From a virus (lineage: Duplodnaviria > Caudoviricetes): a stretch of 52,271 bases of DNA. Positions 4,166 to 45,651 of this stretch are shown here, in pieces; positions within the stretch are counted from its first letter, which is position 1; each line of letters opens with the position of its first letter. The translations under genes and the position numbers were made by a program. Below the pieces are notes generated by a model. That model was not told where the DNA came from. It saw only the letters and a list, made by a program, of their open reading frames with translations, and made no database searches. The DNA lies in the IMG/VR virus record IMGVR_UViG_3300047586_000105, positions 1-52,271 of that record. The stretch is one strand, 5' to 3'.

Positions 4166-7068
4166 CAGGTCTCCACTTCCAGACTGCACCGTATGTTCGC
4201 CGTGATCGGCAGCCAGCCCGCGTCCGTCGTCACCGCGAGGTAGAGTTCATCCCCGGCCGCGAAGACATCCGTGTCCTTCGCCTGCGTCGTCGCCTTGCGC
4301 GAGGGATTCGTTCCGTCGAGCACCGCGCTCAGGGTGCCGAGAACCGCCCCGACTGCATCGGCCAACCCCGTGTTCTTGTAGACGGTGATGGTGAGTGTGC
4401 CCGCCACGCGCGCCGCAGTAGAGGTCACGACGAGGGCGGTCACCGACCCGGCGCGCGGCGCCCGCCAGCGACCCGAGGATCGGGTGAGTTCGACGGCCGT
4501 CTGCCCGGCCACCACAAGTTCCTGCGTCCAGTCGTCGATGGTCTGGCGGAAGCCGCCGACAGCCACGATGTCGCCCGCGAACGTCGCCAGGAGGGAACCG
4601 AGCGTGAGTTGCAGGACAGTGTTCCGCTTGAAGAGGACATCGGTGTTCGTGGCCGAGTCGAAGATGTCGGCGTGCTCCGTCCCACCGACGTACGTTGACT
4701 TCGCCACCGCGAGGCCACCCGCCGTCGTGAGCGAGGCCGCTACGGCTGACGTGGCGTCGGTGACATCGGACACCGTGAACTGGGCATTGACGGTAAGCCG
4801 CTGGTTCGCTGCGGTGGCGTCGAAGATGCCGTAGAGCAGCGCCTTCGCCTTGTCGCCCGCCGTGTCGGTGCGATCCTGATTGTCTACATAGAAGGCATTG
4901 GACCCCGTCTCATAGCGACCCGCCGACTGGCCGAGACCCACGTTATAGGAACCGGAGACGTTGGCCCGGAGGGCGGAATAACCCACCGCAACATTGTAGT
5001 GCCCTGACTGGAGTGAGCCCCCGGCGTTCGAACCGGCGGCCGTGTTGTAGTGCCCCGACGTAATCGACTGGAAGGAGTAGGCCCCCGTGGCGGTATTGTT
5101 GTACCCCGTGATGATGTTGCGGAGCGCATAGAATCCGAGGGCGACATTGCTCTTGAGCGCCGTTGAACTGCCGCCGCCGATGAGGCCCGCCTGATAGCCG
5201 ACAAAGGTGTTTTCCTGGGCACCGACGATGATGTTGGACCCGGCTTGCTGGCCAAAGAACGTGTTGTAATCCGTCCCGTTGATGCCCATGAGGCCGTCGT
5301 CGGCCAGAAGCCGCCCCGCGATGGCCGCCGTGCCCGTGGTGAGGTTGGCGAGAAAGACGGCTGGCTGGTGGGCGGCCAGGAAGTAGAAGGGCACGACCGA
5401 TCCGTCGGGCGTGGTGAGCAGGCAGACGTTCCCGATGAGTCGCGCACCGTCTACGGCGCCGAACTTGACCATGCCGTCTACGACGGTGGTGACATCCTTC
5501 ACTTGGTTGAACGAGCAGGTGGTAGACGCCTGGCCCGAGTAGATGCCGTTGCCGACGGCCCCGTCGATGAGGTTATGTGCGATGCGGGCGTAGGAGTATC
5601 CGCCGACCGCATTGATCCCGATGCCGGTTACGCTACGGATGGTATTGTCGAGCACACTGACGCGGTTGGCCTCGGCGATGATGCCGGTCGCGCACGCCGA
5701 GATTGTGTTCCCCGAGACCTCGCTGTCGTCGCTCCACGTCGAGATGCCGGTGGTTGTGCAGGACCGCACCGTGTTGCCGCGCACGAGGCATCCCGCCGCC
5801 GCATCGCTCACGGAGATGCCCGCGCCACCCGAGGTCAGGACGGTGTTGCCCTCCACGCTGCACCCTGGCGTGAGGACGGGTGCCCATGAGCCGAACAGAA
5901 TGCCGGCCCCGGTGTTGTTGATGCAGATGTTCCCGAGGATGGCGATGTCGGAGACCTGGCTGACGGCGTTCGGCTCGACATCAATCCCGGCTTGGGGTGC
6001 CGTGCCATTCGTATTCTTGAACGTGTTCCCGATGATCTGGCCGCGCAGACACCCGACGACGCTGAGGCCCTGGCGTCGGTTGTTGTCCGAGGTGCAACTC
6101 GTGATGCGGATGTCCTGACACGGCACCGTCTCGCCCGCCGCAGAACCGATGTAGATACCGTCGCCCCAGCAGTCCTTGATGTAACAGTCGGTGATGGCCC
6201 CATTCAGGACGCCCTCGAAGTGAACGCCCATGCCCCACTCGCCACCGCCTCCGTGTGTGCCCCGGTCGCCCGTGATCTTGAGGTTGCGGACAGCGACGTT
6301 CGAGACACAGGTGGCGTAGACGATGGCGTAGTCCGTCAGCGAGTTGGAAATGGCCTTGAGTTCGGCCCCCGGCTCGCCCACGAGTTCGACGTTGGACCCG
6401 AGGACGATGGCGTAGTTCGAGGACACCATACAGGCGTGGCCCGTCGCCGGGACGAGCACGCGCCCGCCGCCCGCCGCAACGGCCGCTGCGATAGCCGCCT
6501 GCACCTTCGCGGTATCGTCCGTGGCGCCATCCACCGCAGCGCCGAACATCGTCCGGACGTTGTACTCGGGGAGTTTCTGCGCGACCCACGCCACGCCGGT
6601 CCACTGCAAGGCGTCGTTCACCGTGACGCCTAGCGGGAACCCCCAGGGCATTCCGCCGGGGCCACCCGTCGCCAACTTGGCCATCGCGTCCGGTCGCCCG
6701 CCCACGCCGTCGTACAGCACCTTCGTCCCCGCGCCGTCGTACTGCACCGGGGCCAGGAAGACCGCGTACCCGAGGCCGGGCGTGAGTGCAATCGTCCGGT
6801 CCTGAAGGCGGTCGGCGCGGCAGTCCACCAGCGTCGTCGAGACGTAGTTGGCTGGGTCGTAGGCCGCGACGCCGCCCTTGCCCGCCGCCGTGCTCTGGAC
6901 GTGCACCTGGACCCACGGGGCATCCAACGGCGAGCGGAATCGCACCCCGAGGTTCGACCCATCGTAGACCGTGCCCACGATGGTCGGCTCCTTGCGCGCG
7001 AGTTCCGCGTTGAGCGTCGCGACCAACTCCGTGAGGTAGGGATCGCCGTTCGGCGGGCGGCGCAGCAT
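4165..7068 (-). CDS. Tailspike with right-handed beta-helix (pectin-lyase-like, putative depolymerase), N(T/V)xxG repeats and a C-terminal beta-sandwich
   Basis: TGATG overlap at 7068; FGAAVDGATDDTAKVQAAI, DCWGDGIYIG, NNRRQGLSV, PQAGIDVEPN; repeats NTFFG/NTFVG/NVALG/NTATG/NVAVG. Confidence 0.8.
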   Translation of the reverse strand: MLRRPPNGDPYLTELVATLNAELARKEPTIVGTVYDGSNLGVRFRSPLDAPWVQVHVQSTAAGKGGVAAYDPANYVSTTLVDCRADRLQDRTIALTPGLGYAVFLAPVQYDGAGTKVLYDGVGGRPDAMAKLATGGPGGMPWGFPLGVTVNDALQWTGVAWVAQKLPEYNVRTMFGAAVDGATDDTAKVQAAIAAAVAAGGGRVLVPATGHACMVSSNYAIVLGSNVELVGEPGAELKAISNSLTDYAIVYATCVSNVAVRNLKITGDRGTHGGGGEWGMGVHFEGVLNGAITDCYIKDCWGDGIYIGSAAGETVPCQDIRITSCTSDNNRRQGLSVVGCLRGQIIGNTFKNTNGTAPQAGIDVEPNAVSQVSDIAILGNICINNTGAGILFGSWAPVLTPGCSVEGNTVLTSGGAGISVSDAAAGCLVRGNTVRSCTTTGISTWSDDSEVSGNTISACATGIIAEANRVSVLDNTIRSVTGIGINAVGGYSYARIAHNLIDGAVGNGIYSGQASTTCSFNQVKDVTTVVDGMVKFGAVDGARLIGNVCLLTTPDGSVVPFYFLAAHQPAVFLANLTTGTAAIAGRLLADDGLMGINGTDYNTFFGQQAGSNIIVGAQENTFVGYQAGLIGGGSSTALKSNVALGFYALRNIITGYNNTATGAYSFQSITSGHYNTAAGSNAGGSLQSGHYNVAVGYSALRANVSGSYNVGLGQSAGRYETGSNAFYVDNQDRTDTAGDKAKALLYGIFDATAANQRLTVNAQFTVSDVTDATSAVAASLTTAGGLAVAKSTYVGGTEHADIFDSATNTDVLFKRNTVLQLTLGSLLATFAGDIVAVGGFRQTIDDWTQELVVAGQTAVELTRSSGRWRAPRAGSVTALVVTSTAARVAGTLTITVYKNTGLADAVGAVLGTLSAVLDGTNPSRKATTQAKDTDVFAAGDELYLAVTTDAGWLPITANIRCSLEVET

Positions 7069-24251: not shown

Positions 24252-26015
24252 TCAGACTCTCCCTCGGTGGGCGAACTGGCGCCGGATGCGCCGCTCCTCG
24301 GCCTGTGCGTGCTTGGCGTGCGCGGCAAGGCGTTTTTCCAAACCCGTATCACGATTTCGGTCTACCTTCTGCGTCTTGGGCGCCAGATGGGCGCGGTCGG
24401 GCGAGCGGGGACGCACCCAGTTCCCGTAGGCCACGGCATCGGCCTTGTCGGGGGAACGTCCAACGCGGGAGCGGATGTGCTCCTTGAGCGCTAGCGTGAT
24501 CTTGCCGCCCGGCTCCTCGTACTCGATGGCCGTCAGTTCCTCGAAGAGTCGCTGGTCCTTCGGCAGGCCGATGCGGTTGAGGCGCAGGTCCTCGCGGAGC
24601 CGCCAGAAGACTTGGGAGCGGACATTCGCGTAGCGTTCGGCCTCGGGCACGACGGGGCCGGCAGGGCGGAGCGCGCCCTCTTCGTCCTTCCTCGTCTGGC
24701 TCCACTGGCCCTCGATGTCGATGGCGGGCACCGCGCGCTCGCCGCCTGAGATGCGGCGGACGCGCACCCCGAGCCGCACGAGTTCATTGACGGTGCTCGC
24801 TCCGACCCCTACCGAGTCGATGCCCACGTTCCGGGGACTGATGGGCGCGTCGGGGTTCGTCATCTCCCGGTGCACGATGCGCCCCACCTCGGAGGCGTCG
24901 GCGGCGACGAGGTACTCGACTTCCGTGCACACCGCGCCCTGCCAGCGCGAGACGGCGCTCTTGTCCCCCGTCGGGGAGTCGGCCACGTCCACGCCGAGCG
25001 AGAGGGGTCCGTCACGCAACTTCTCGTCGCCCCACCGACCCGCTGCCGATTCGCACCAGTCCCACCGGATGAGTGCCCTCTTCGACTGCGTGGGTGCGAT
25101 ACCCCGGACACGGGAGAGGTAGATGGGGTCGTCCTGGTTCCCCCCGGCGTCCGCGAGGCGGCGCGCGATGCTCTCCGGCGTGACGGCACCGGGAATGATG
25201 TCGCGCCCCGTCACGACGTTCGGGTGGTCGAGTGCGGAGATGCGGACCGCCTTGACCCACGGGCGCGCAGCGAAGAGGCCGAGCGTGTCGTAGCGGTGGT
25301 CCGGGTTGCCCATCCCGAGGATTGGGTTGAAGCGCCCCGTCGCCGTGTTGATGATGGTGTTCACGAGCGCCGTATCGACGCCCGGCATCTCCTCGACGAG
25401 CCACAGCATACTCGGATGGTGGAAACCCGCGAGGCGCTGGGCCACATCCTCCTGTGCTCCGACGCCAGCCGCGAACGCCGTGGCGGCCCACACCTCTTGG
25501 TCGCCCTGCCCGTCCATCATCCGCAACTTGCCGGTGAGGAGCGCCGCGTTCGGGAAGTGGCGCTTGAATCTTGGATACAGGCGGCCGATTTCTTTCCAGA
25601 GGTTGAGGAGGAGCTGCTCTTGCTTCGGCGCGATGCTGAGGACGATGGAGTTCGTGTGAGTAGCGAGGAACCACAGTGCCCCGCAGGCACCGAGTCCGTA
25701 CGTCTTCCCCGTGTTCGTCCCCGAACTGACGGCGACGCTCCGACCCTCGGCGAGTTCGTTCAGCACGAGCGGGATGGGGTCGATGTCACCATCCCATTCG
25801 TGTGTCGCGTAGCCTTCGTTCAGCGACCACCGGAGCGTGTTCTCCGGCACCCCGAGGTACTCGACGATCCATTCGAGCGGGCGTTTCTGGTATGCCGTGT
25901 GGGCCACCGCGCCCGACGTCCACAGTCCCGCCCGCTTGCGCCGCTCGACCTCGGCCTCGGCCTTGGCGCGGGCGAGTTCGAGTTCGGCGGGCGAGGCGGC
26001 GCCGGGGATGCTCAC
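24252..26015 (-). CDS. terL: Terminase large subunit
   Basis: GTGA overlap start; Walker A SSGTNTGKT, Walker B-like LWLVEE, GMGNP; RNase H-like nuclease LGVDVA...GIDSVGVG...GRSPDKADA. Confidence 0.9.
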   Translation of the reverse strand: MSIPGAASPAELELARAKAEAEVERRKRAGLWTSGAVAHTAYQKRPLEWIVEYLGVPENTLRWSLNEGYATHEWDGDIDPIPLVLNELAEGRSVAVSSGTNTGKTYGLGACGALWFLATHTNSIVLSIAPKQEQLLLNLWKEIGRLYPRFKRHFPNAALLTGKLRMMDGQGDQEVWAATAFAAGVGAQEDVAQRLAGFHHPSMLWLVEEMPGVDTALVNTIINTATGRFNPILGMGNPDHRYDTLGLFAARPWVKAVRISALDHPNVVTGRDIIPGAVTPESIARRLADAGGNQDDPIYLSRVRGIAPTQSKRALIRWDWCESAAGRWGDEKLRDGPLSLGVDVADSPTGDKSAVSRWQGAVCTEVEYLVAADASEVGRIVHREMTNPDAPISPRNVGIDSVGVGASTVNELVRLGVRVRRISGGERAVPAIDIEGQWSQTRKDEEGALRPAGPVVPEAERYANVRSQVFWRLREDLRLNRIGLPKDQRLFEELTAIEYEEPGGKITLALKEHIRSRVGRSPDKADAVAYGNWVRPRSPDRAHLAPKTQKVDRNRDTGLEKRLAAHAKHAQAEERRIRRQFAHRGRV

Positions 26016-26218
26016 CCGACGAGCGCGAGGTGGTGATGGCCTGCAGGTTGCGCCGCGAGAACGCGCTGCTGGCACGCCTCACAGGTGGTCGGTGCCCAAG
26101 TGCCGTCCCAGTCGTGTTGCACGATGGTCGTGGTGCACGGCGTGTTCGTCGCGGGGTCGAGGACCACCTCACAGGTGGCGAAGCGCCACGACGCCGGGAT
26201 GTCGCGGATAGCAGTCAC
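26012..26218 (-). CDS. Small Cys-containing hypothetical protein
   Basis: 68 aa coupled to genes on both sides; C...C...CEAC. Confidence 0.5.
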   Translation of the reverse strand: MTAIRDIPASWRFATCEVVLDPATNTPCTTTIVQHDWDGTWAPTTCEACQQRVLAAQPAGHHHLALVG

Positions 26219-26919
26219 TCTTCGGTGCTCGCGCGGCGTGCGATGCGGCCCACGGACCGGAGGTTCGCGACCGGCGTGGCGATCGCCGCTCGGAGCGCGG
26301 GCATCCGCTTCTCCAGCCAGCCGGGGTTCTGCGCCACGCCGCCCTCGGAGGCCGTATCGGGGATGCTGCGGTAGTACTCCTCACGCAACGCCAAGTACTT
26401 CTCGGGGTCGCCACCACTCGCCGCGAGCATCTGCTTCGCGATACCGGGGCCGTGCTGGACTGCGGCGTCCATATGCACGAGGCCGAGGTTCGGGGGCAAC
26501 GTGTTCGCGCCCGACCGCGTCCAGAGGTCGTGCCAGACCCGCATCCCATACTGCGCCGACTCGTGCGGGTCCGCCTGGTTGTATGTGTCGCCGGGGTGGG
26601 TCCGGTGGTACTCCTCCTCTTGGCCACCCGGCGCCAGTCCCTCTCCCGACGCCATGAAGTCCGCGAGGTGCCCACCGCGGACTTGTCCGGAGTACCCCGG
26701 CCGGGATTCCTGCTCGGCGATGAAGCGCATGGCGCGCATGAAGTTCGCATCGTTCTGCGGACTAGGGGCGGTTGCCGGACCGATGAGCGGTACGGGCCTC
26801 TGGCTCTCTACTGGGTCGGTCGTGAAGACCGCCGTGGCGTCGGGGGTTGCCACCGCAGACCCCAGAAGGCCCGCGACGGCGAGAGGCAGACTCCCTTTCG
26901 GGAAACGTGGTGCGGTCAT
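26215..26919 (-). CDS. GH108-like lysozyme / endolysin with a C-terminal peptidoglycan-binding helix
   Basis: RBS AGGAGG; LPPNLGLVHMDAAVQHGPGIAKQML, LALREEYYRSI, GWLEKRM. Confidence 0.65.
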   Translation of the reverse strand: MTAPRFPKGSLPLAVAGLLGSAVATPDATAVFTTDPVESQRPVPLIGPATAPSPQNDANFMRAMRFIAEQESRPGYSGQVRGGHLADFMASGEGLAPGGQEEEYHRTHPGDTYNQADPHESAQYGMRVWHDLWTRSGANTLPPNLGLVHMDAAVQHGPGIAKQMLAASGGDPEKYLALREEYYRSIPDTASEGGVAQNPGWLEKRMPALRAAIATPVANLRSVGRIARRASTEE

Positions 26920-26937
26920 CGTCCCTCCTGTCGTGGA

Positions 26938-27045
26938 GGCGGACCGGGGGAGTGCCTTGGCTGGGGGCGCGGACCTTGTGTAAGGGACTGGCACGGATGG
27001 CCAGCGCCGCGGTGATCCCAGGTGCCCTCTCCCCCGAGTACCGCC
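26938..27045. ncRNA. Candidate structured intergenic RNA (long stem closing a three-way junction)
   Basis: GGCGG/CCGCC, CGGGGGAG/CTCCCCCG, TGGG/CCCA and CGCGG/CCGCG enclose two hairpins CCTT-GTGT-AAGG and CTGGC-ACGGATG-GCCAG. Confidence 0.35.
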
Positions 27046-27048
27046 AGC

Positions 27049-27273
27049 TCAGTCGTTGCCCTTGTGCGCGCGGGCGATGGAGCCGATGGCGTTGAGCGCG
27101 AACTGGGCGCGCTTCTTCGTCCGCGTTGCCGCTCGGGAACCCGCCGCGAGAGACTTGTGGGCGAACTCTCGGACGGTCATGCCCGCCCGCTTCGCCTGTG
27201 CGGTGAAAGATCCGGTGGTGCCTTTCCGCTCCATCTCGTCCCGCGCCGTCTGCAACCAGTACTTGTCGGCCAT
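27049..27273 (-). CDS. Small basic phage protein
   Basis: RBS AGGAGG; KYWLQ...KGTTGSFTAQAKRAG...KKRAQFALN. Confidence 0.65.
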   Translation of the reverse strand: MADKYWLQTARDEMERKGTTGSFTAQAKRAGMTVREFAHKSLAAGSRAATRTKKRAQFALNAIGSIARAHKGND

Positions 27274-27301
27274 CGTGCCCTCCTGTGAGTCATCCTACGA
27301 A

Positions 27302-27668
27302 TGGAGCCGAGGGGAATCGAACCCCTGTGCAACGCGCAGTTCCGGCGTCGAGCTACGAGCGTTCCCGAGTTCAAGTCCCGGGCAGACTGGGAGCGACCGA
27401 CTTCATCACTCCTCCACCAGCGCGGTTTGTCGGGGCTGCGCGGCCCGTATAACCGCGGCGCTTGGGTTCTCACGGTGCGCCGCAACCGTGGCGTTCACGG
27501 CTGCCTAAGCAGCCATCGCGACCGGCCGCTCATACTGCGGAGCGACCCGACCTCGGAACGCGAGCACCTTGCCCGAAGGCTTGGCATTTGAAGCGTGGGC
27601 CGCATAGGCGCGTGCCCATCTCCGCTCGCCCTTCCCCTTCACTGCCGCTGTCGAAACCTGTCGGCCCC
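27302..27668 (-). ncRNA. ssrA: tmRNA (one-piece, 367 nt); tag reading frame 27585-27505 = AKPSGKVLAFRGRVAPQYERPVAMAA*
   Basis: 5' GGGGCCGA-CAGG-TTTCGAC; 3' T-arm AGGGG-TTCGATT-CCCCT then CGGCTCCA; acceptor stem with G3:U; helix 2 pairing CAGCG-GCAGT with ACTGC-G-CGTTG; tag ends in AA with TAG in the loop of hairpin GGCTGC-TTAG-GCAGCC; CCA not encoded. Confidence 0.93.
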
Positions 27669-27697
27669 GTACCTCCCGTCGCCCTAGCGACACCTTG

Positions 27698-27726
27698 ACA
27701 GTATGCCGACACCCTCGCGCCATCAA
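27698..27726 (-). promoter_or_regulatory. Sigma70-type promoter for the tmRNA
   Basis: TTGATG-17 nt-TACTGT about 30 nt upstream of the tmRNA 5' end. Confidence 0.55.
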
Positions 27727-28340
27727 GTACCCGTCACCTTGGCGCGACGTCCACGCTCCTCGGTGATGCGGTTGAGGCACTCGGCGTAACCCGCCATGTC
27801 GGTCCGATTGTCGCGCTTCGGCTGATAGGTCTCGCGGGACACCTTGAGGAGCACCATACAGAGTGCCACCTGTTCGGCGGTCACGGGTATCCCGAGGACG
27901 CCAGACCACATGACTCCCGTGCGACTGAAGTCATCGAGTGGGTGCCCGTAGGTTGCCCCGCGATCGCCGTAGACGAGTCGCCGGGCTTCCTCCAGTACCG
28001 TCTCGTGCTTCGGGATAATGAGGTCGAGTGTGTCGGCATCGAGGACCGGGATGCCACATTGCTCGGCGACATACACCTCCAGCCGCGCGCCCACGCTGTC
28101 CCGCCAGCCGGGAAGCACGGCCACGGCGTCCGACCGGCAGACCTCCGGTAGGTCGAGCGCCATGTAGTAGGCCGTCGGCTTCACGGCGTCCGTGGCAGGA
28201 TTGAAGCCCTCGGACTCGTCGCGTTCGGCGGGCGACCAGACGTCGTGCCCGAGGTCGCGGAGCCGCCGTGCAGCCGCGTGGAAGGCGGGGAACCCAAAGT
28301 CGGGCAATCCCCGCATCTTCCCCGATAGGTAGACGCGCAT
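27723..28340 (-). CDS. Fusion of a DUF4406 (nucleoside 2-deoxyribosyltransferase-like) domain and a DUF6378-like helical domain
   Basis: MRVYLSGKMRGLPDFGFPAF...SPAE...LPGWRDSVGARLE; then RLVYGDRGATYGHPLDDF...VALCMVLLKVSR...DNRTDMAGYA. Confidence 0.75.
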   Translation of the reverse strand: MRVYLSGKMRGLPDFGFPAFHAAARRLRDLGHDVWSPAERDESEGFNPATDAVKPTAYYMALDLPEVCRSDAVAVLPGWRDSVGARLEVYVAEQCGIPVLDADTLDLIIPKHETVLEEARRLVYGDRGATYGHPLDDFSRTGVMWSGVLGIPVTAEQVALCMVLLKVSRETYQPKRDNRTDMAGYAECLNRITEERGRRAKVTGT

Positions 28341-28495
28341 CAGGTCAGTCCTTCCAGTCCAGCGAGGCGCCGGAGTTCTGTGCGGGCGGCGACGAGTTCG
28401 GCGAAGACAATCGCTTTCTCGGTGCGACGCCACTCCTCTTCAGCCAACAGGAGAGTTACCACGGCGTGGAGCAACTCCCGGTCGGACTCACTCAT
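28340..28495 (-). CDS. Hypothetical protein (51 aa)
   Basis: MSESDRELL...; TGATG overlap with the next gene. Confidence 0.45.
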   Translation of the reverse strand: MSESDRELLHAVVTLLLAEEEWRRTEKAIVFAELVAARTELRRLAGLEGLT

Positions 28496-28705
28496 CCGGT
28501 TCTCCCTTCCCGCGCAGGGCCGCCACGACGGCGTCCTCGCAGTGGTCAACGAACGCCTGCTGTGACGCCTCGGCCCGATGCCCCGAGAGTGACCAGCCGC
28601 AGGAACACCCGACCGTCCGTGTGAGCGAATTGACGAGTATCAACTCGTGCGCTCGTGCGCTGCCTTGGCTGCTGCCCAGTCGAGGTGCGAGGGACGGGCG
28701 CTCAC
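28488..28705 (-). pseudogene. Small H-CxCGW-H protein frameshifted by an 8-bp tandem duplication
   Basis: CGCACGAG occurs twice in tandem at 28644-28659; removing one copy joins MSARPSHLDWAAAKAAHE to LILVNSLTRTVGCSCGW...FVDHC (69 aa). Confidence 0.5.
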
Positions 28706-29133
28706 ACCTTCGGCTTCCGGCGCACGGACCGCACTTGCCACCGCTCCTTGGTCGCGTGGAGGTACAGCGTGGGGTACTTGATGCCGGTATCGCGTGCCGC
28801 AGCGGCCAGCCCCAGTCGGGCAGCGACATACCGTGCCCGGTGGAGTTCGTCCCGCGTGCAGATGCGGTAGCGACACCCAGTACCCGACCGCGTGACGACC
28901 GAAGCCGAAGGCGTGCGAGCGAGTGGTTGCACGACCTTCGTGAACGTGTGCCGGCGCTCGAACCGCTGCAGCCGCTCGATCTCCCGGCGACAGGGCTTGC
29001 AACCCCACAACACCTTCCCGTTGCCGTCGGTGTAGGGCGTGAGCGGCTTCAAGCAAATCCAGCAGTCGCCGCCCTTGTTCGCCGCTGTGTCGAGCAACCG
29101 GGCGAGTGTCATCCCTTTCCGGGTGTGGGTCAC
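28702..29133 (-). CDS. Zinc-finger plus HTH-like protein
   Basis: CWIC...CKPC; AAARDTGIKYPTLY. Confidence 0.5.
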   Translation of the reverse strand: MTHTRKGMTLARLLDTAANKGGDCWICLKPLTPYTDGNGKVLWGCKPCRREIERLQRFERRHTFTKVVQPLARTPSASVVTRSGTGCRYRICTRDELHRARYVAARLGLAAAARDTGIKYPTLYLHATKERWQVRSVRRKPKV

Positions 29134-29221
29134 GAGAGGCCGCCTGTTTCACGTGCAACAGTCGGAAGTCCGACCGTCGCGGTCGTGATGAGCGGGGTCC
29201 GCGTCAGCCAGCCGCCGCGCT

Positions 29222-30310
29222 TCACGCCGTGTCCTCGGTGAACGTCTGGCCGCGTGGAGTCAGGAACGCTCCCGGGCGCGCGTGCTCCCAGAGCCCTGGT
29301 CGGTAGTCCTTGCCGTCGCGGCGCGCGAAGAGTGCCCACTTGAACGGCGACGCCACCGCCCGCAGGGCGAAGTCCTTCCGCGTGTGGCCGGTTGGCAGGT
29401 CGGCTACGGTCGCAGCGTAGGTGCGCTCAATCTCCGCAGCGCCATCCTCCACGGTTGCCAAGAGTCGCGCCGCAACAGCACGCGTCCACTCGTGAAACTC
29501 GTCGGGGAGTGGGGCGATCAACTCGGCGATGGGCTTCCCGTTCTTCAGATGCTCCCAGACGGTGCGCTCGTTGAGGCCAGTCACGAGGCGATGCAGCGCG
29601 ACGTAGTCCTCCTGCTTGAGTTTCACACGCTCGTCCGTCGAGAGAACATGTACGACCAGCCCCTCCGCATTACGACGAACCGGAGCGGTAAGCGCGGCGG
29701 TGAGCGTCGGATAGTCGAAGCGCGCCGCGCGGGGTCCGGGCCAGTTTGCCACGTCCTCACCTGGGATGCTCCGCCCTGTGGCGATACTCACGCCCGCAAG
29801 CAAGAACAGGTCGTCGGTCGCCCCGTAGTCCACGACGATGCGATTGCTCGGGTAGACGATCTCGAAAAGGAGCGTGAGGCCAGCCGGAGGCGCGTAGTCG
29901 GAGTACCGCTCCGCCCAAAGCGCGGTGGCGTGTAGGGCCTGTTCCCCCGCAAAGGAGCCGCGCGTGGCGATGGCGTGCCCGTCCGGTATCGGGTAGAGAA
30001 TCCCCAGGCTGCCGTCGAGCTTGTCGGTGACGGACGCGGGGGAGTCGAGGTCGAGTTGCGCCCCGCCGGACTGGCCGTAGTTGAAGAACTTGCGGAAGGG
30101 TCGCGCCACAACCTCGCGCGTGTCCGTCCGGTAGATGAGGCCACGGCACTGGCGCGTCACGGCGTTCCAGGCGCCGTTCTCGTACTGGCACCGCTCGGTG
30201 TAGTTGAGGATCGCCAACGGCAGAGTCGGGTGCTCGCGCCGCACCACGAACCGCTCCTCAAGCATCCGCTCCAAAAGGACCGCGTCGAGCACATCGTCGA
30301 GGGTGCTCAC
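29222..30310 (-). CDS. RNA ligase, T4 Rnl1-like
   Basis: QCRGLI, ARPFRKFFNY, nucleotidyltransferase motif I TDKLDGSLG, ATRGSF, LLFEIVYPSNRIVVDY, EGLVV, RVKLK..DYVALHR. Confidence 0.9.
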   Translation of the reverse strand: MSTLDDVLDAVLLERMLEERFVVRREHPTLPLAILNYTERCQYENGAWNAVTRQCRGLIYRTDTREVVARPFRKFFNYGQSGGAQLDLDSPASVTDKLDGSLGILYPIPDGHAIATRGSFAGEQALHATALWAERYSDYAPPAGLTLLFEIVYPSNRIVVDYGATDDLFLLAGVSIATGRSIPGEDVANWPGPRAARFDYPTLTAALTAPVRRNAEGLVVHVLSTDERVKLKQEDYVALHRLVTGLNERTVWEHLKNGKPIAELIAPLPDEFHEWTRAVAARLLATVEDGAAEIERTYAATVADLPTGHTRKDFALRAVASPFKWALFARRDGKDYRPGLWEHARPGAFLTPRGQTFTEDTA

Positions 30311-31645: not shown

Positions 31646-32386
31646 TTACGGCTTCTCCCCTTCCTTACTAGAGGGCGTTCCGGGATCTGCTGGGCCTGCC
31701 GGCAGCGCCCGTACCTTCTCCGACGCCAGGACGGCTAGCGGATGCTCGCCGGCCGCAATCCGTGCGAGCTGGTCATCCCGGAGCCGGGAGTAGTCAATCA
31801 TCGCCAAGCCGCCGCGGACGTTTAGCGTCTGCTGGTCGCTCCACCCCATGTTCTTTAGGGCGAAGATCGAGCCGGTTGGCCGGTCCCGGTCTAGTCGGCG
31901 CTCGTAGTCGGCTTCAACGGCCAGCCTCGCGCGTTTTACGGCGTCACTAAACTCGGGGCGCTCGCCATACCGTTCAAAGCTCTCTCGACTGCTGAGTCCG
32001 AGGGTCAGGATAAGGCCGGTGAGGGTAACGGGTTCCTTGTCTCGTGAGCGCTGTTCGAGGTAGGCGGCTACCCTGATGTCCAGTTCCTCGGGTGTTTCGA
32101 TGATGCGGGGCCGTCCTCCGGCGTGCTTGGGCTTGGTATCGGTGCCCGGTCCCGGCTCCGCCGGCACCCCGGCCCCCGGCCCGGCCCCGGTGCCCGGTGC
32201 CGTCTCTACCGCTCTCCCTGCTGTTATCCCGTTACCGTGAGGCGTGGTGTTCGTGGGATCGGTTGCGGTTGGCGGCGGGGGCGCGCTGGGGTTCGCTGGC
32301 TTGCGGGGCTTCCGGGTGCGGCGCTTCGGCTGCGGCGCGTGCGATGCGCTGGCGTCGAGGGTCGGAGGCGTGGTGTCGTCGTTCAT
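31646..32386 (-). CDS. terS: Terminase small subunit (P22 gp3-like DNA packaging protein)
   Basis: GGRPRIIETPEEL...Y, PVTLTGL, FSDAVKRARLAVE, GSIFALKNMGWSD; Pro-rich N-terminus; RBS GGGAG. Confidence 0.85.
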   Translation of the reverse strand: MNDDTTPPTLDASASHAPQPKRRTRKPRKPANPSAPPPPTATDPTNTTPHGNGITAGRAVETAPGTGAGPGAGVPAEPGPGTDTKPKHAGGRPRIIETPEELDIRVAAYLEQRSRDKEPVTLTGLILTLGLSSRESFERYGERPEFSDAVKRARLAVEADYERRLDRDRPTGSIFALKNMGWSDQQTLNVRGGLAMIDYSRLRDDQLARIAAGEHPLAVLASEKVRALPAGPADPGTPSSKEGEKP

Positions 32387-32441
32387 CACTCCCGAATCTA
32401 GCCGAGGTCGGAATCCCGGCAAGGTGGCGTCATACCGTCCG

Positions 32442-44144: not shown

Positions 44145-44563
44145 GCGCTCCTCGTTTCCACGGCCTTGAGTGCGGCACGGCAGATGGCGAGTGGGGCCGT
44201 GTCAACGTCGTCACTCATCACGAATACGCCACCGCCGAGTTGCTCCGAGACCAGGGCGCTATACTTGCCATTGAGGCGCTTCGTGACGCCGCCCATCAGT
44301 CGCCCGGATGACGTGATCTTCTCGACCACCTCCCACGCGGCGGCGATGTCCGTGGAGTAGGGCCGGAGAACGGTGTTCTTTGCTACGCCGTCTAAGTGTC
44401 CGGTTATGCCGCCGTCCGAGCGCCGCCAACCAGCTAGGAACCCGTCCGGCGATTCGAGATACTCTCCGGGTTCGCCCATCCACTTGGTCAACCACCGATA
44501 ACCCATCACCTTCTCGGCGATGAGGGCGTCCAGCTCCCGGCCAGCGGGGAGATCGTCGCTCAT
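44141..44563 (-). CDS. Phage ABA sandwich domain protein
   Basis: GRELDALIAEKVMG...YSTDIAAAWEVVEK...APLAICRAALKA. Confidence 0.75.
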   Translation of the reverse strand: MSDDLPAGRELDALIAEKVMGYRWLTKWMGEPGEYLESPDGFLAGWRRSDGGITGHLDGVAKNTVLRPYSTDIAAAWEVVEKITSSGRLMGGVTKRLNGKYSALVSEQLGGGVFVMSDDVDTAPLAICRAALKAVETRSA

Positions 44564-45651
44564 GCTGTCCTCGTTTCCACGGCCAAGTCCACCAGCCCGA
44601 GCGGACGACCGATGTAGGCGACCAGTTTCTTGCGGTCCTCAGCGATGACCGACAGCGGCAGCGCGTTCGTCCCCAACTCCCGCGTCGTGGTGCGTTCGTT
44701 GAGGTAGAGGTCGTGCACCTCGGTCGGCACGGCGTGGCCGCAGTACATCTTGACCCGGAACCTCGGGATGCCGGCGTCCTCGGCCCACTGGATGTAGGTG
44801 CGCCGGAAGGTGTGGGGCGTCACGGCGAGGTCGGGGAAGGCCCGAGCGAGCGCCGCCCGGAAACTCTTGGCCGCGTGCTCCGGCTTCGTCAGGGCGCAGA
44901 GGTAGGGCAGCACGCGATCACTGGCGCTCCGCTTCACGCCGAAGACCCGGGTGATGCCGACCTCCGCGTCCTGTCGCCAGCCATCCTCGGTGAACTCCTT
45001 CCACCGCATCCCCGAGGTCACGAGCGACCACGCCGTCCGGGCGTAGCGCGTGGGCAGCAGGATCACGCCGTCCCGGAACTCCTTCACCGTGAGGCCCGGC
45101 TTGTCGGGTCGCGTGTAGGGCATCGCCGGCACCTTGCGGAGCGCGTTCCACAGCGGGGACTCCACCTCGCCCAAAGCCCAGGTGGCGAAGGACATCAGCA
45201 CCCGCTTGTGTCGGTTGAACGTCACCGCAGCCCCCCGGCGCTCGTAGCGCGACTTGAGCGAACGGAGGAGGTCCGGCAGGTCGGAGAGCCGGGCACCCTG
45301 CCGAGCGACCGCCTCGACCTGCGTGATGGCGAGTTGGATGTCCTTCCGGTACGCCTCGGACTTGGGGTAGACCGTCGCGAAGTCCCGCAGTTTCGGCAGG
45401 AGTGGAGCGGAGGTCCGGGTGTCCCGCGCCACGAGGTCATTCAGTGTCCCGGTGGAGACGGCGTTGTAGACCTGGAGCGGGCTCACCTGTCGGTCGTAGA
45501 GTCGCTGCAGGACATCAATGCGCCCCCGCTGGACACACATCCGGACGGCGGCCCGGACATCCTGCACGAGTTTGGGGTCACTCGTGCCGACGTGCCGATG
45601 GATGCGGCCCACGCCGGGGATGACGATGTCGAGCGAGGGAGTGCCGGTCAC
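44560..45651 (-). CDS. int: Tyrosine recombinase / integrase
   Basis: Catalytic motifs SGMRWKE, VK, HTFRRT, CGH, LY. Confidence 0.8.
   Translation of the reverse strand: MTGTPSLDIVIPGVGRIHRHVGTSDPKLVQDVRAAVRMCVQRGRIDVLQRLYDRQVSPLQVYNAVSTGTLNDLVARDTRTSAPLLPKLRDFATVYPKSEAYRKDIQLAITQVEAVARQGARLSDLPDLLRSLKSRYERRGAAVTFNRHKRVLMSFATWALGEVESPLWNALRKVPAMPYTRPDKPGLTVKEFRDGVILLPTRYARTAWSLVTSGMRWKEFTEDGWRQDAEVGITRVFGVKRSASDRVLPYLCALTKPEHAAKSFRAALARAFPDLAVTPHTFRRTYIQWAEDAGIPRFRVKMYCGHAVPTEVHDLYLNERTTTRELGTNALPLSVIAEDRKKLVAYIGRPLGLVDLAVETRTA

Follow-up and report, generated by a model that had tools for sequence, protein, structure and literature searches.

A divergent one-piece tmRNA gene in the packaging region of a peat phage and its likely role in ribosome rescue

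The tmRNA gene and its architecture

The virus record IMGVR_UViG_3300047586_000105 (Duplodnaviria; Caudoviricetes) is a phage genome of 52,271 bases that is rated complete and has a peat metagenome as its source. The whole record was analysed and is called the window below. An earlier note, drawn up from the sequence alone, had proposed that it carries a transfer-messenger RNA (tmRNA) gene, ssrA, with a promoter of its own and an unusually long tag. This gene lies on the minus strand in the packaging region, between the small and the large terminase genes, with phage genes in the same orientation on both sides. It comprises the following elements:

27302–27668, minus strand: one-piece tmRNA gene of 367 nucleotides (nt) (ARAGORN; RF00023; the lineage model R1 described below; fold z-score)
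27662–27668, minus strand: 5' strand of the acceptor stem, GGGGCCG, which pairs with 27303–27309 (7 bp, G3:U present)
27586–27626, minus strand: pseudoknot-1 region (RNA positions 43–83), with stem 2 formed by UGGGC (27614–27618) and GCCCA (27596–27600)
27505–27585, minus strand: tag reading frame of 26 residues, AKPSGKVLAFRGRVAPQYERPVAMAA, with the resume codon GCC at 27583–27585 and the UAG stop at 27505–27507
27499–27514, minus strand: helix 5 hairpin GGCUGC-UUAG-GCAGCC with the stop codon in its loop (read from the sequence; an equivalent hairpin exists in the related tmRNA L328)
27302–27326, minus strand: T-arm (AGGGG-UUCGAUU-CCCCU), 3' strand of the acceptor stem and discriminator A (RF00023 alignment)

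ARAGORN called a single tmRNA at 27302–27668 on the minus strand, whose coding part corresponds to RNA positions 84–164 and encodes the tag given above followed by a stop; this is the sole RNA gene of the window, as no tRNA gene was called. The Rfam family RF00023 matched 27299–27668 on the same strand over the full model (1–374) with an E-value of 1.2e-15 and 47.2 bits, a margin of 0.2 bits over its gathering score of 47 bits; alignment confidence was low in the middle part. Two independent detectors are thus in agreement, and the complete one-piece ssrA of the earlier note was recovered by both of them as the same gene, with the tag that had been read there. In addition, the RNA folded better than 100 of 100 shuffled sequences (z = -2.44). 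No SmpB (PF01668) was found among the window proteins at E ≤ 1, which bears out the remark that smpB is not visible in the window.

The features on which the proposal had been based, i.e., the G3:U pair, the T-arm, helix 2, and a stop codon in a hairpin loop, are all seen in the sequence. For the comparison of structures we used two related phage tmRNAs, L328 and L171, found in other viral contigs (see below). The G3:U pair is present in all three aligned members, and pairs 4 and 5 of the acceptor stem show compensatory changes. The T-loop is likewise retained in the window, L328, and L171. CCA is not part of the gene, whose 3' end is directly followed by TTC. A long helix 2 is present, several helix 2a pairs carry compensatory changes according to RNAalifold, and the strands GCGAGC and GCUCGU pair in the window and in L171, whereas the cellular tmRNAs have GCGUGC with GCACGU. 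A helix CUGG...CCAG is conserved across the lineage. In total, RNAalifold predicted 91 pairs for the three RNAs, 31 of them with compensatory changes, located in the acceptor stem, helix 2a, stem 2 of pseudoknot 1, and the T-arm; some of the long-range pairs are probably spurious.

The earlier note had also observed that the pseudoknot-1 region looks more like a nested hairpin than a classical pseudoknot. The minimum-energy fold of this region is indeed a nested hairpin (-16.9 kcal/mol, compared with -10.7 and -10.2 in the relatives). Its stem 2 covaries with those of L328 and L171, and both relatives have a classical H-type pseudoknot 1, which in L328 is built from GAGC/GCUC and CCCGC/GCGGG and in L171 from CAGC/GCUG and UGGUCC/GGGCCA. 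This comparison suggests that the nested hairpin is a derived state of the window member and not a trait of the whole lineage.

Phage-borne relatives and the tag peptide

The tmRNA of the window and those of L328, L330, and L171/L289 form a small and divergent phage-borne lineage that appears to move between phages. The members share with the window the blocks CUGGUGGAGGA, GUCG-UCCC, CACGCUCGUA, and GGUUUCGAC, together with long tags. The blocks common to the window and L171 tmRNAs and missing in the cellular ones are GGUUUCGAC, GCGAGC/GCUCGU, CUGGUGGAGGA, and GGUCGCUCCCAG. Patterns made from the signature blocks retrieved the L171 contig alone among the viral contigs, and a pattern of the 3' part retrieved 45 viral loci, including L328 and L330. 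The L328 tmRNA has a GC content of 0.70 and the tag AKAQAKVLAFRPRVQYRPLALAA, and scores 43.1 bits with RF00023; the L330 tmRNA scores 30.4 bits and was missed by ARAGORN, its 26-residue tag (AKP...AA) having been read in frame. Both scores are under the Rfam cut-off, and the two genes would thus escape standard surveys.

We built a covariance model of the 3' part of the lineage (R1, 124 positions). The four members were its training set and match by construction, with 129.3 bits for L328, 120.4 for the window, 120.2 for L171, and 101.4 for L330. The informative part is the gap between them and all the other tmRNAs tested, which reached at most 57.0 bits, the five cellular ones scoring 40.6–47.3 bits.

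The L328 gene sits among head genes (a prohead protease, an HK97-type capsid gene, and a head-tail adaptor), and its phage has no protein in common with the window at E ≤ 1e-6; thus, the same type of tmRNA is carried by unrelated phages. The L171 tmRNA is located on the strand opposite to the terminase, beside a tRNA-Pro gene.

In the window the resume context is CAAAU followed by GCC, in agreement with the earlier note, and an A precedes the resume codon by four bases, at 27589. An A occupies the same position in L328 and L171, and a G is found in L330 as read. In E. coli, the equivalent A86 is described as fixing the frame four bases downstream (PMC2481249). The window tag ends in AMAA and the L328 tag in ALAA, and each contains five basic residues and one or no acidic residue, so that the description of the tag as basic with a terminal AA holds. 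The two RNAs are only 57% identical overall. Their tags are identical at 17 of 23 aligned residues (74%), and 6 of these 17 residues are encoded by different synonymous codons. The remaining six positions are replacements, and the two indels amount to two codons and one codon, leaving the frame intact. The alignment score of the two tags was not reached in any of 5000 shuffles. Synonymous changes together with in-frame indels are what selection on a translated peptide produces, and they fix the frame; the tag peptide is therefore under selection in two unrelated phages. The tags of L330 and L171 are also long but just 33% identical to the window tag. In the lineage as a whole, all four tags have 21–26 residues and three of them are basic.

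Within the tag frame, codons 3–5 (RNA positions 86–99, approximately 27583–27570) form a tetraloop hairpin immediately behind the resume codon, GCC-UUCG-GGC, whose counterpart in L328 is GGC-GCAA-GCC, with one compensatory pair change. This hairpin may account for the three residues encoded there being different in the window and L328 tags. To our knowledge, it is uncommon for a tag frame to begin with a structured element.

The length of the tag depends on the standard of comparison. Five genomes of candidate host lineages (G001–G005, from Vicinamibacterales and Gemmatimonadota, in which related prophages occur) encode tags of 9 residues: ADTQYALAA, ANNDLALAA (twice), ANNNFALAA, and ANSNLALAA. 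Among 45 distinct ARAGORN tags from the fetched viral contigs, which were picked by sequence patterns and whose calls are unverified, 13 have at least 20 residues and 4 at least 26, and the tag of mycobacteriophage Bxz1 has 25. Hence, the tag can be called unusually long with respect to those host-lineage genomes, but not among phage tmRNAs.

A literature search for a resemblance of the tag core to tags of the cyanobacterial type found nothing, and no claim is based on it. An exact 17-mer of the tag core occurs in 11 other loci, none of which has a tmRNA. In four high-GC viral contigs (L339, L343, L347, and L349; e.g., L343:2127–2504, plus strand) we observed a protein of 125 residues with the C-terminus ...NKVLAFRQKAQAG followed by a stop, which contains the same six-residue core encoded by the same 17 bases as the tmRNA tag. 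We take this protein to resemble an actinophage small terminase, and its likeness to the tag could be a coincidence or a common peptide motif.

Genomic setting, transcription and host

Most genes of the window are on the minus strand. In the order of transcription, RecE-like and RecT-like genes (46–48 kb) are followed by the small terminase, an RNA ligase, a gene with DUF4406 and DUF6378 domains, and the tmRNA, after which come a gene of 74 codons, another of 259 codons, the large terminase, the head genes, and the tail genes. The features that bear on the setting are the following:

44560–45651: weak integrase-family match (phrog_1, E 3.9e-8), without Pfam support
31646–32422, minus strand: small terminase, gp3-like (PF16677, 3.9e-14; phrog_606, 2.8e-16)
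29222–30310, minus strand: T4 Rnl1-type RNA ligase (phrog_562, 3.3e-64; PF09511, 9.8e-10)
27723–28433, minus strand: DUF4406 and DUF6378 protein, nucleoside 2-deoxyribosyltransferase-like, upstream of the tmRNA (Pfam, 3.2e-20 and 6.5e-25; phrog_355, 1.7e-27)
27698–27726, minus strand: TTGATG-17-TACTGT, the promoter proposed in the earlier note (read from the sequence; 7 of 12 consensus positions)
27049–27273, minus strand: gene for a protein of 74 residues (phrog_20603; homologs in L221 and L165)
24252–26075, minus strand: large terminase (phrog_2, 1.9e-17; 600 homologs at E ≤ 1e-20)

The gene had been described as lying deep inside phage late genes. The phage setting is correct but the location was imprecise, as the site is between the two terminases, near an RNA ligase (about 1.6 kb upstream of the tmRNA) and a gene that resembles those of nucleotide metabolism. 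The GC content is even along the window (0.65–0.71) and that of the tmRNA is equal to it (0.67). A second assembler, run on a peat-metagenome run that is probably the source run, yielded one contig of 47.5 kb that is identical over 25500–29500. This rules out an assembler artefact, although the reads are of the same run and the contig is not independent data.

The sequence TTGATG-17-TACTGT is present at 27726–27698 on the minus strand, as reported, but its reading as a promoter is not supported. It agrees with the consensus at only 7 of 12 positions, the window contains 88 matches that are equal or better (1.68 per kb), which is the level expected by chance, and a scanner found no promoter-like or terminator-like site in 26900–28100. 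Moreover, the first hexamer of the motif shares bases with the TGA that ends the upstream gene. Downstream, the AGGAGG and ATG of the 74-codon gene come 28 nt after the 3' end of the tmRNA, without a terminator between them. Given this overlap, the lack of a terminator, and the proximity of the next ribosome-binding site, the simplest reading is that the tmRNA is probably cut from a polycistronic transcript, as tRNAs are.

The DUF6378 domain was encountered a second time near a tmRNA: a homolog (40% identity over 80 residues) is encoded at L330:3222–3461 on the minus strand, about 1.5 kb downstream of the L330 tmRNA, whereas in the window it is upstream. With two cases only, this proximity may be due to chance.

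The window phage is distant from cultured phages. The closest terminase of a cultured phage is 28% identical, and blastn against GenBank phages gave no match for the tmRNA region, for 15 kb around it, or for the L328 and L330 tmRNAs. In metagenomes, the large terminase has 600 relatives at E ≤ 1e-20, up to 71% identical. As a single query against viral contigs the terminase found no relatives, and a query made from an alignment of 30 terminase relatives (A1) then found them. We fetched 80 viral, 32 metagenome, and 28 reference-genome loci, each reaching at most 7 kb beyond the terminase in both directions. The reference-genome loci include prophage-like copies in megabase contigs of Longimicrobiales and Gemmatimonadetes, as well as a Vicinamibacterales contig.

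ARAGORN called a tmRNA in one of the 112 viral and metagenome loci, L171, whose terminase is 41% identical to that of the window. The R1 model likewise had one match in loci L141–L240, again L171, and none in L241–L280. In L221 the gene order is 74-codon gene, 259-codon gene, RNA ligase, terminase. In L165 (terminase 43% identical) a tRNA-Thr gene (4385–4458, plus strand) lies directly upstream of the homolog of the 74-codon gene, i.e., in the slot that the tmRNA occupies in the window. By these comparisons the tmRNA is an accessory gene, and the variable slot in which it lies seems to accept tRNA genes as well.

Two side observations were made on these loci. On the contig of L149 (terminase 52% identical), the stretch L290:541–642 on the minus strand contains only the 3' part of a tmRNA, in which the T-arm is flanked by the 3' strands of helix 2 and of the acceptor stem. 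RF00023 gives this stretch 26.7 bits and R1 gives it 41.4 bits, but it is not called by ARAGORN, and no 5' half was seen among the 550 bases that were read. It may represent an attachment site, a two-piece form, or simply a fragment. In addition, several of the terminase homologs P0002, P0024, P0038, P0076, P0081, P0083, P0093, P0101, and P0106 are 750–1016 residues long, with LAGLIDADG or Hom_end domains (PF14528, PF05204, and PF14890), and in L141, L153, L165, and L225 the tblastn matches are split in a way consistent with insertions, which suggests inteins in some terminase homologs.

Regarding the host, Gemmatimonadota and Vicinamibacterales are candidates and no more, because of the peat origin, the GC content of 67%, the Shine-Dalgarno site, and the prophage relatives in these two groups. 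The search for a cellular source of the tmRNA or its tag, made in samples of two phyla only, found none. When the gene was compared by blastn with 301 Gemmatimonadota genomes, only its last 26 nt were covered among the matches listed. Over these 26 nt the identity with tRNA-Ala genes of the sampled Gemmatimonadota (loci L333, from the unpublished genome G102, L334, L336, and L338) is 100%, and this result holds without G102. The comparison with 301 Acidobacteriota genomes gave no match at E ≤ 1e-7. A pattern made of the back-translated tag core and A-A-stop was found in 4 of the 301 Gemmatimonadota genomes, and in none of the four is the A-A-stop in frame. In L333, L336, and L338, 17 tRNA genes were seen within about 2 kb, in a conserved order.

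Function, alternative explanations and significance

We consider it likely that the gene encodes a functional phage tmRNA. It would be transcribed with the flanking minus-strand genes and excised by the tRNA-processing enzymes of the host, and CCA would be added post-transcriptionally because the gene lacks it. The host alanyl-tRNA synthetase would charge it with alanine by way of the G3:U pair, and with host SmpB and EF-Tu it would reach ribosomes stalled on mRNAs that are broken or lack a stop codon. Translation would then resume at GCC, four bases after the conserved A, adding the 26-residue basic tag that ends in AMAA. As a result the ribosome would be freed and the nascent chain would probably be marked for proteolysis. 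The benefit for the phage would be to keep ribosomes available in infection while phage or host nucleases cleave mRNAs. The nearby Rnl1-type RNA ligase fits a theme of RNA damage, an association seen only in the window. The suggestion of the earlier note that the rescue RNA is nuclease-resistant is not supported by the data presented here.

Phage tmRNAs are not new. They have been reported in 402 of 18,146 phage genomes (2.3%), with the upkeep of the hijacked translation machinery and the tagging of host proteins for recycling among the roles proposed (PMC9004378); ribosome rescue or the sensing of the host state has also been put forward (PMC7162821). The function of phage tmRNAs has received little attention, and in the literature that we searched there was no experimental study of it and no analysis of tag conservation. 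Bxz1 (cluster C) is one of eight mycobacteriophages listed with ssrA (PMC4131195). Like the window, it encodes a one-piece tmRNA, with a tag of 25 residues according to ARAGORN and an RF00023 score that is reduced in comparison with cellular tmRNAs (73.9 bits). The two differ in that Bxz1 has a genome of 156 kb with its tmRNA within a large tRNA cluster, whereas the window has 52 kb, no tRNA gene, and its tmRNA between the terminases; the tag of Bxz1 is acidic with ALV as its C-terminus, that of the window is basic with AMAA, and no blastn similarity was found between the two tmRNAs. The marine phage Melnitz resembles the window in having a complete tmRNA, no recognised integrase, and a sporadic distribution of the gene among related phages (PMC9004378). 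Unlike the one-piece gene of the window, which has no convincing promoter, its tmRNA is two-piece and permuted and is described as being under a glutamine riboswitch and downstream of an early promoter (PMC9004378); no riboswitch matched in the window at the Rfam gathering thresholds. With bacterial ssrA, as represented by G001–G005, the window tmRNA shares the tRNA-like domain with G3:U, helix 2, a GCN resume codon, the A at -4, the stop codon in a hairpin loop, and a C-terminal A-x-A-A. It departs from bacterial ssrA in its RF00023 score, in a tag of 26 instead of 9 residues, in stem 1 of pseudoknot 1, and in having no smpB in the same genome.

Several observations weigh against a functional tmRNA. 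The RF00023 score is barely over the cut-off, and the cellular tmRNAs of G001–G005 reach 144.8–181.2 bits. Stem 1 of pseudoknot 1 is degenerate, with at most 3 bp. For pseudoknots 2–4 there are many alternative GC-rich pairings, and the score of the best H-type candidate was reached or exceeded by 38 of 200 shuffles. The closest terminase relatives with enough upstream DNA, L221 (68% identical) and L142 (60%), have no tmRNA, so the gene is dispensable. Finally, no RNA ligase match was found in L328, L289, or L330, and a ligase adjoins the tmRNA only in the window. With respect to pseudoknot 1, its degeneration need not abolish function, as the pseudoknots of E. coli tmRNA are described as replaceable with unrelated structures (PMC2481249).

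That the detectors were misled by a tRNA-like element without a tmRNA body is hardly credible: the Rfam score is marginal and the alignment has low confidence in mid-model, but the match extends over the whole model with an E-value of 1.2e-15, the ARAGORN call is independent, the tag frame is conserved, the stop-codon hairpin is present, and helix 2 and stem 2 of pseudoknot 1 show covariation. It is also highly unlikely that the gene is passenger DNA, i.e., a recently captured host ssrA or the remnant of an integration site, that does nothing for the phage. Integration into ssrA is frequent among phages, the window has a weak integrase-family match, and the closest phage relatives lack the gene. 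Nevertheless, the gene is full length and is flanked on both sides by co-oriented phage genes. The single integrase-like gene, which Pfam does not support, lies 17 kb from it, and the 3' 24-mer of the tmRNA occurs once in the window, even with up to 3 mismatches allowed. The RNA is, moreover, very unlike cellular tmRNAs and common to other phages with covariation, which suggests a long residence in phages. The particular case of a prophage attachment-site remnant, i.e., a partial 3' copy of ssrA beside an integrase and duplicated at the other end, was rejected because the gene is complete, no convincing integrase is nearby, and its 3' end is not repeated; the earlier note had come to the same view.

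The RNA could instead act as a decoy that titrates SmpB, alanyl-tRNA synthetase, or EF-Tu of the host and thus inhibits host trans-translation. The phage encodes no SmpB, pseudoknot 1 is degenerate, and there is a precedent in mycobacteriophage DS6A, whose minimal tmRNA is described as little more than the tRNA-like domain; an inhibition of tmRNA by such molecules has been reported, perhaps through the titration of SmpB (PMC4131195). In the window, by contrast, the full mRNA-like domain is present, and a decoy would have no need of the conserved frame-setting A and reading frame, the synonymous changes, or the in-frame indels. As the reading frame is under selection, we regard a decoy as very unlikely.

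An alternative that keeps the gene functional, and that the earlier note had raised as a rerouting of tagged proteins to another adaptor or protease, is that the phage tmRNA reprograms trans-translation, the long basic tag being a signal of its own that tethers an adaptor or a protease, or that distinguishes phage-tagged from host-tagged proteins. This would be consistent with the purifying selection on the tag across two unrelated phages, with tags of 21–26 residues in all four members, three of them basic, with the ordinary 9-residue tags of the five candidate host-lineage genomes, and with the finding of no similar tag or tmRNA in the 301 Gemmatimonadota and 301 Acidobacteriota genomes sampled. 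Yet the tag could be a copy of that of an unsampled cellular lineage, its C-terminus AMAA (ALAA in L328) is of the ordinary kind, and the strong likeness of tags is limited to the window and L328, those of L330 and L171 having the lower identity given above. We thus hold reprogramming to be unlikely, and we are similarly doubtful of the idea behind it, that the long basic tag arose within the lineage, with selection in unrelated phages preserving its core K-V-L-A-F-R-x-R-V, as a phage-designed signal and not a copy of a host tag. If this were true, the fate of rescued chains would be altered, for instance by faster or adaptor-independent delivery or by delivery to a different protease, and the lineage would pass from one phage to another in the manner of an accessory gene.

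Returning to the reading that we prefer, a functional tmRNA for ribosome rescue, nothing known is overturned by the tmRNA of the window, and what is new is a divergent lineage in unrelated phages, direct evidence for selection on its tag peptide, and members at or below the thresholds of the detectors. Because some members fall below the Rfam and ARAGORN thresholds, surveys undercount phage tmRNAs. A small, complete genome of 52 kb with a tmRNA beside an RNA-repair ligase would also be a convenient model to study why phages carry a ribosome-rescue RNA. Selection on the tag in two unrelated phages speaks for the translation of phage tmRNAs and for the importance of the tag sequence.

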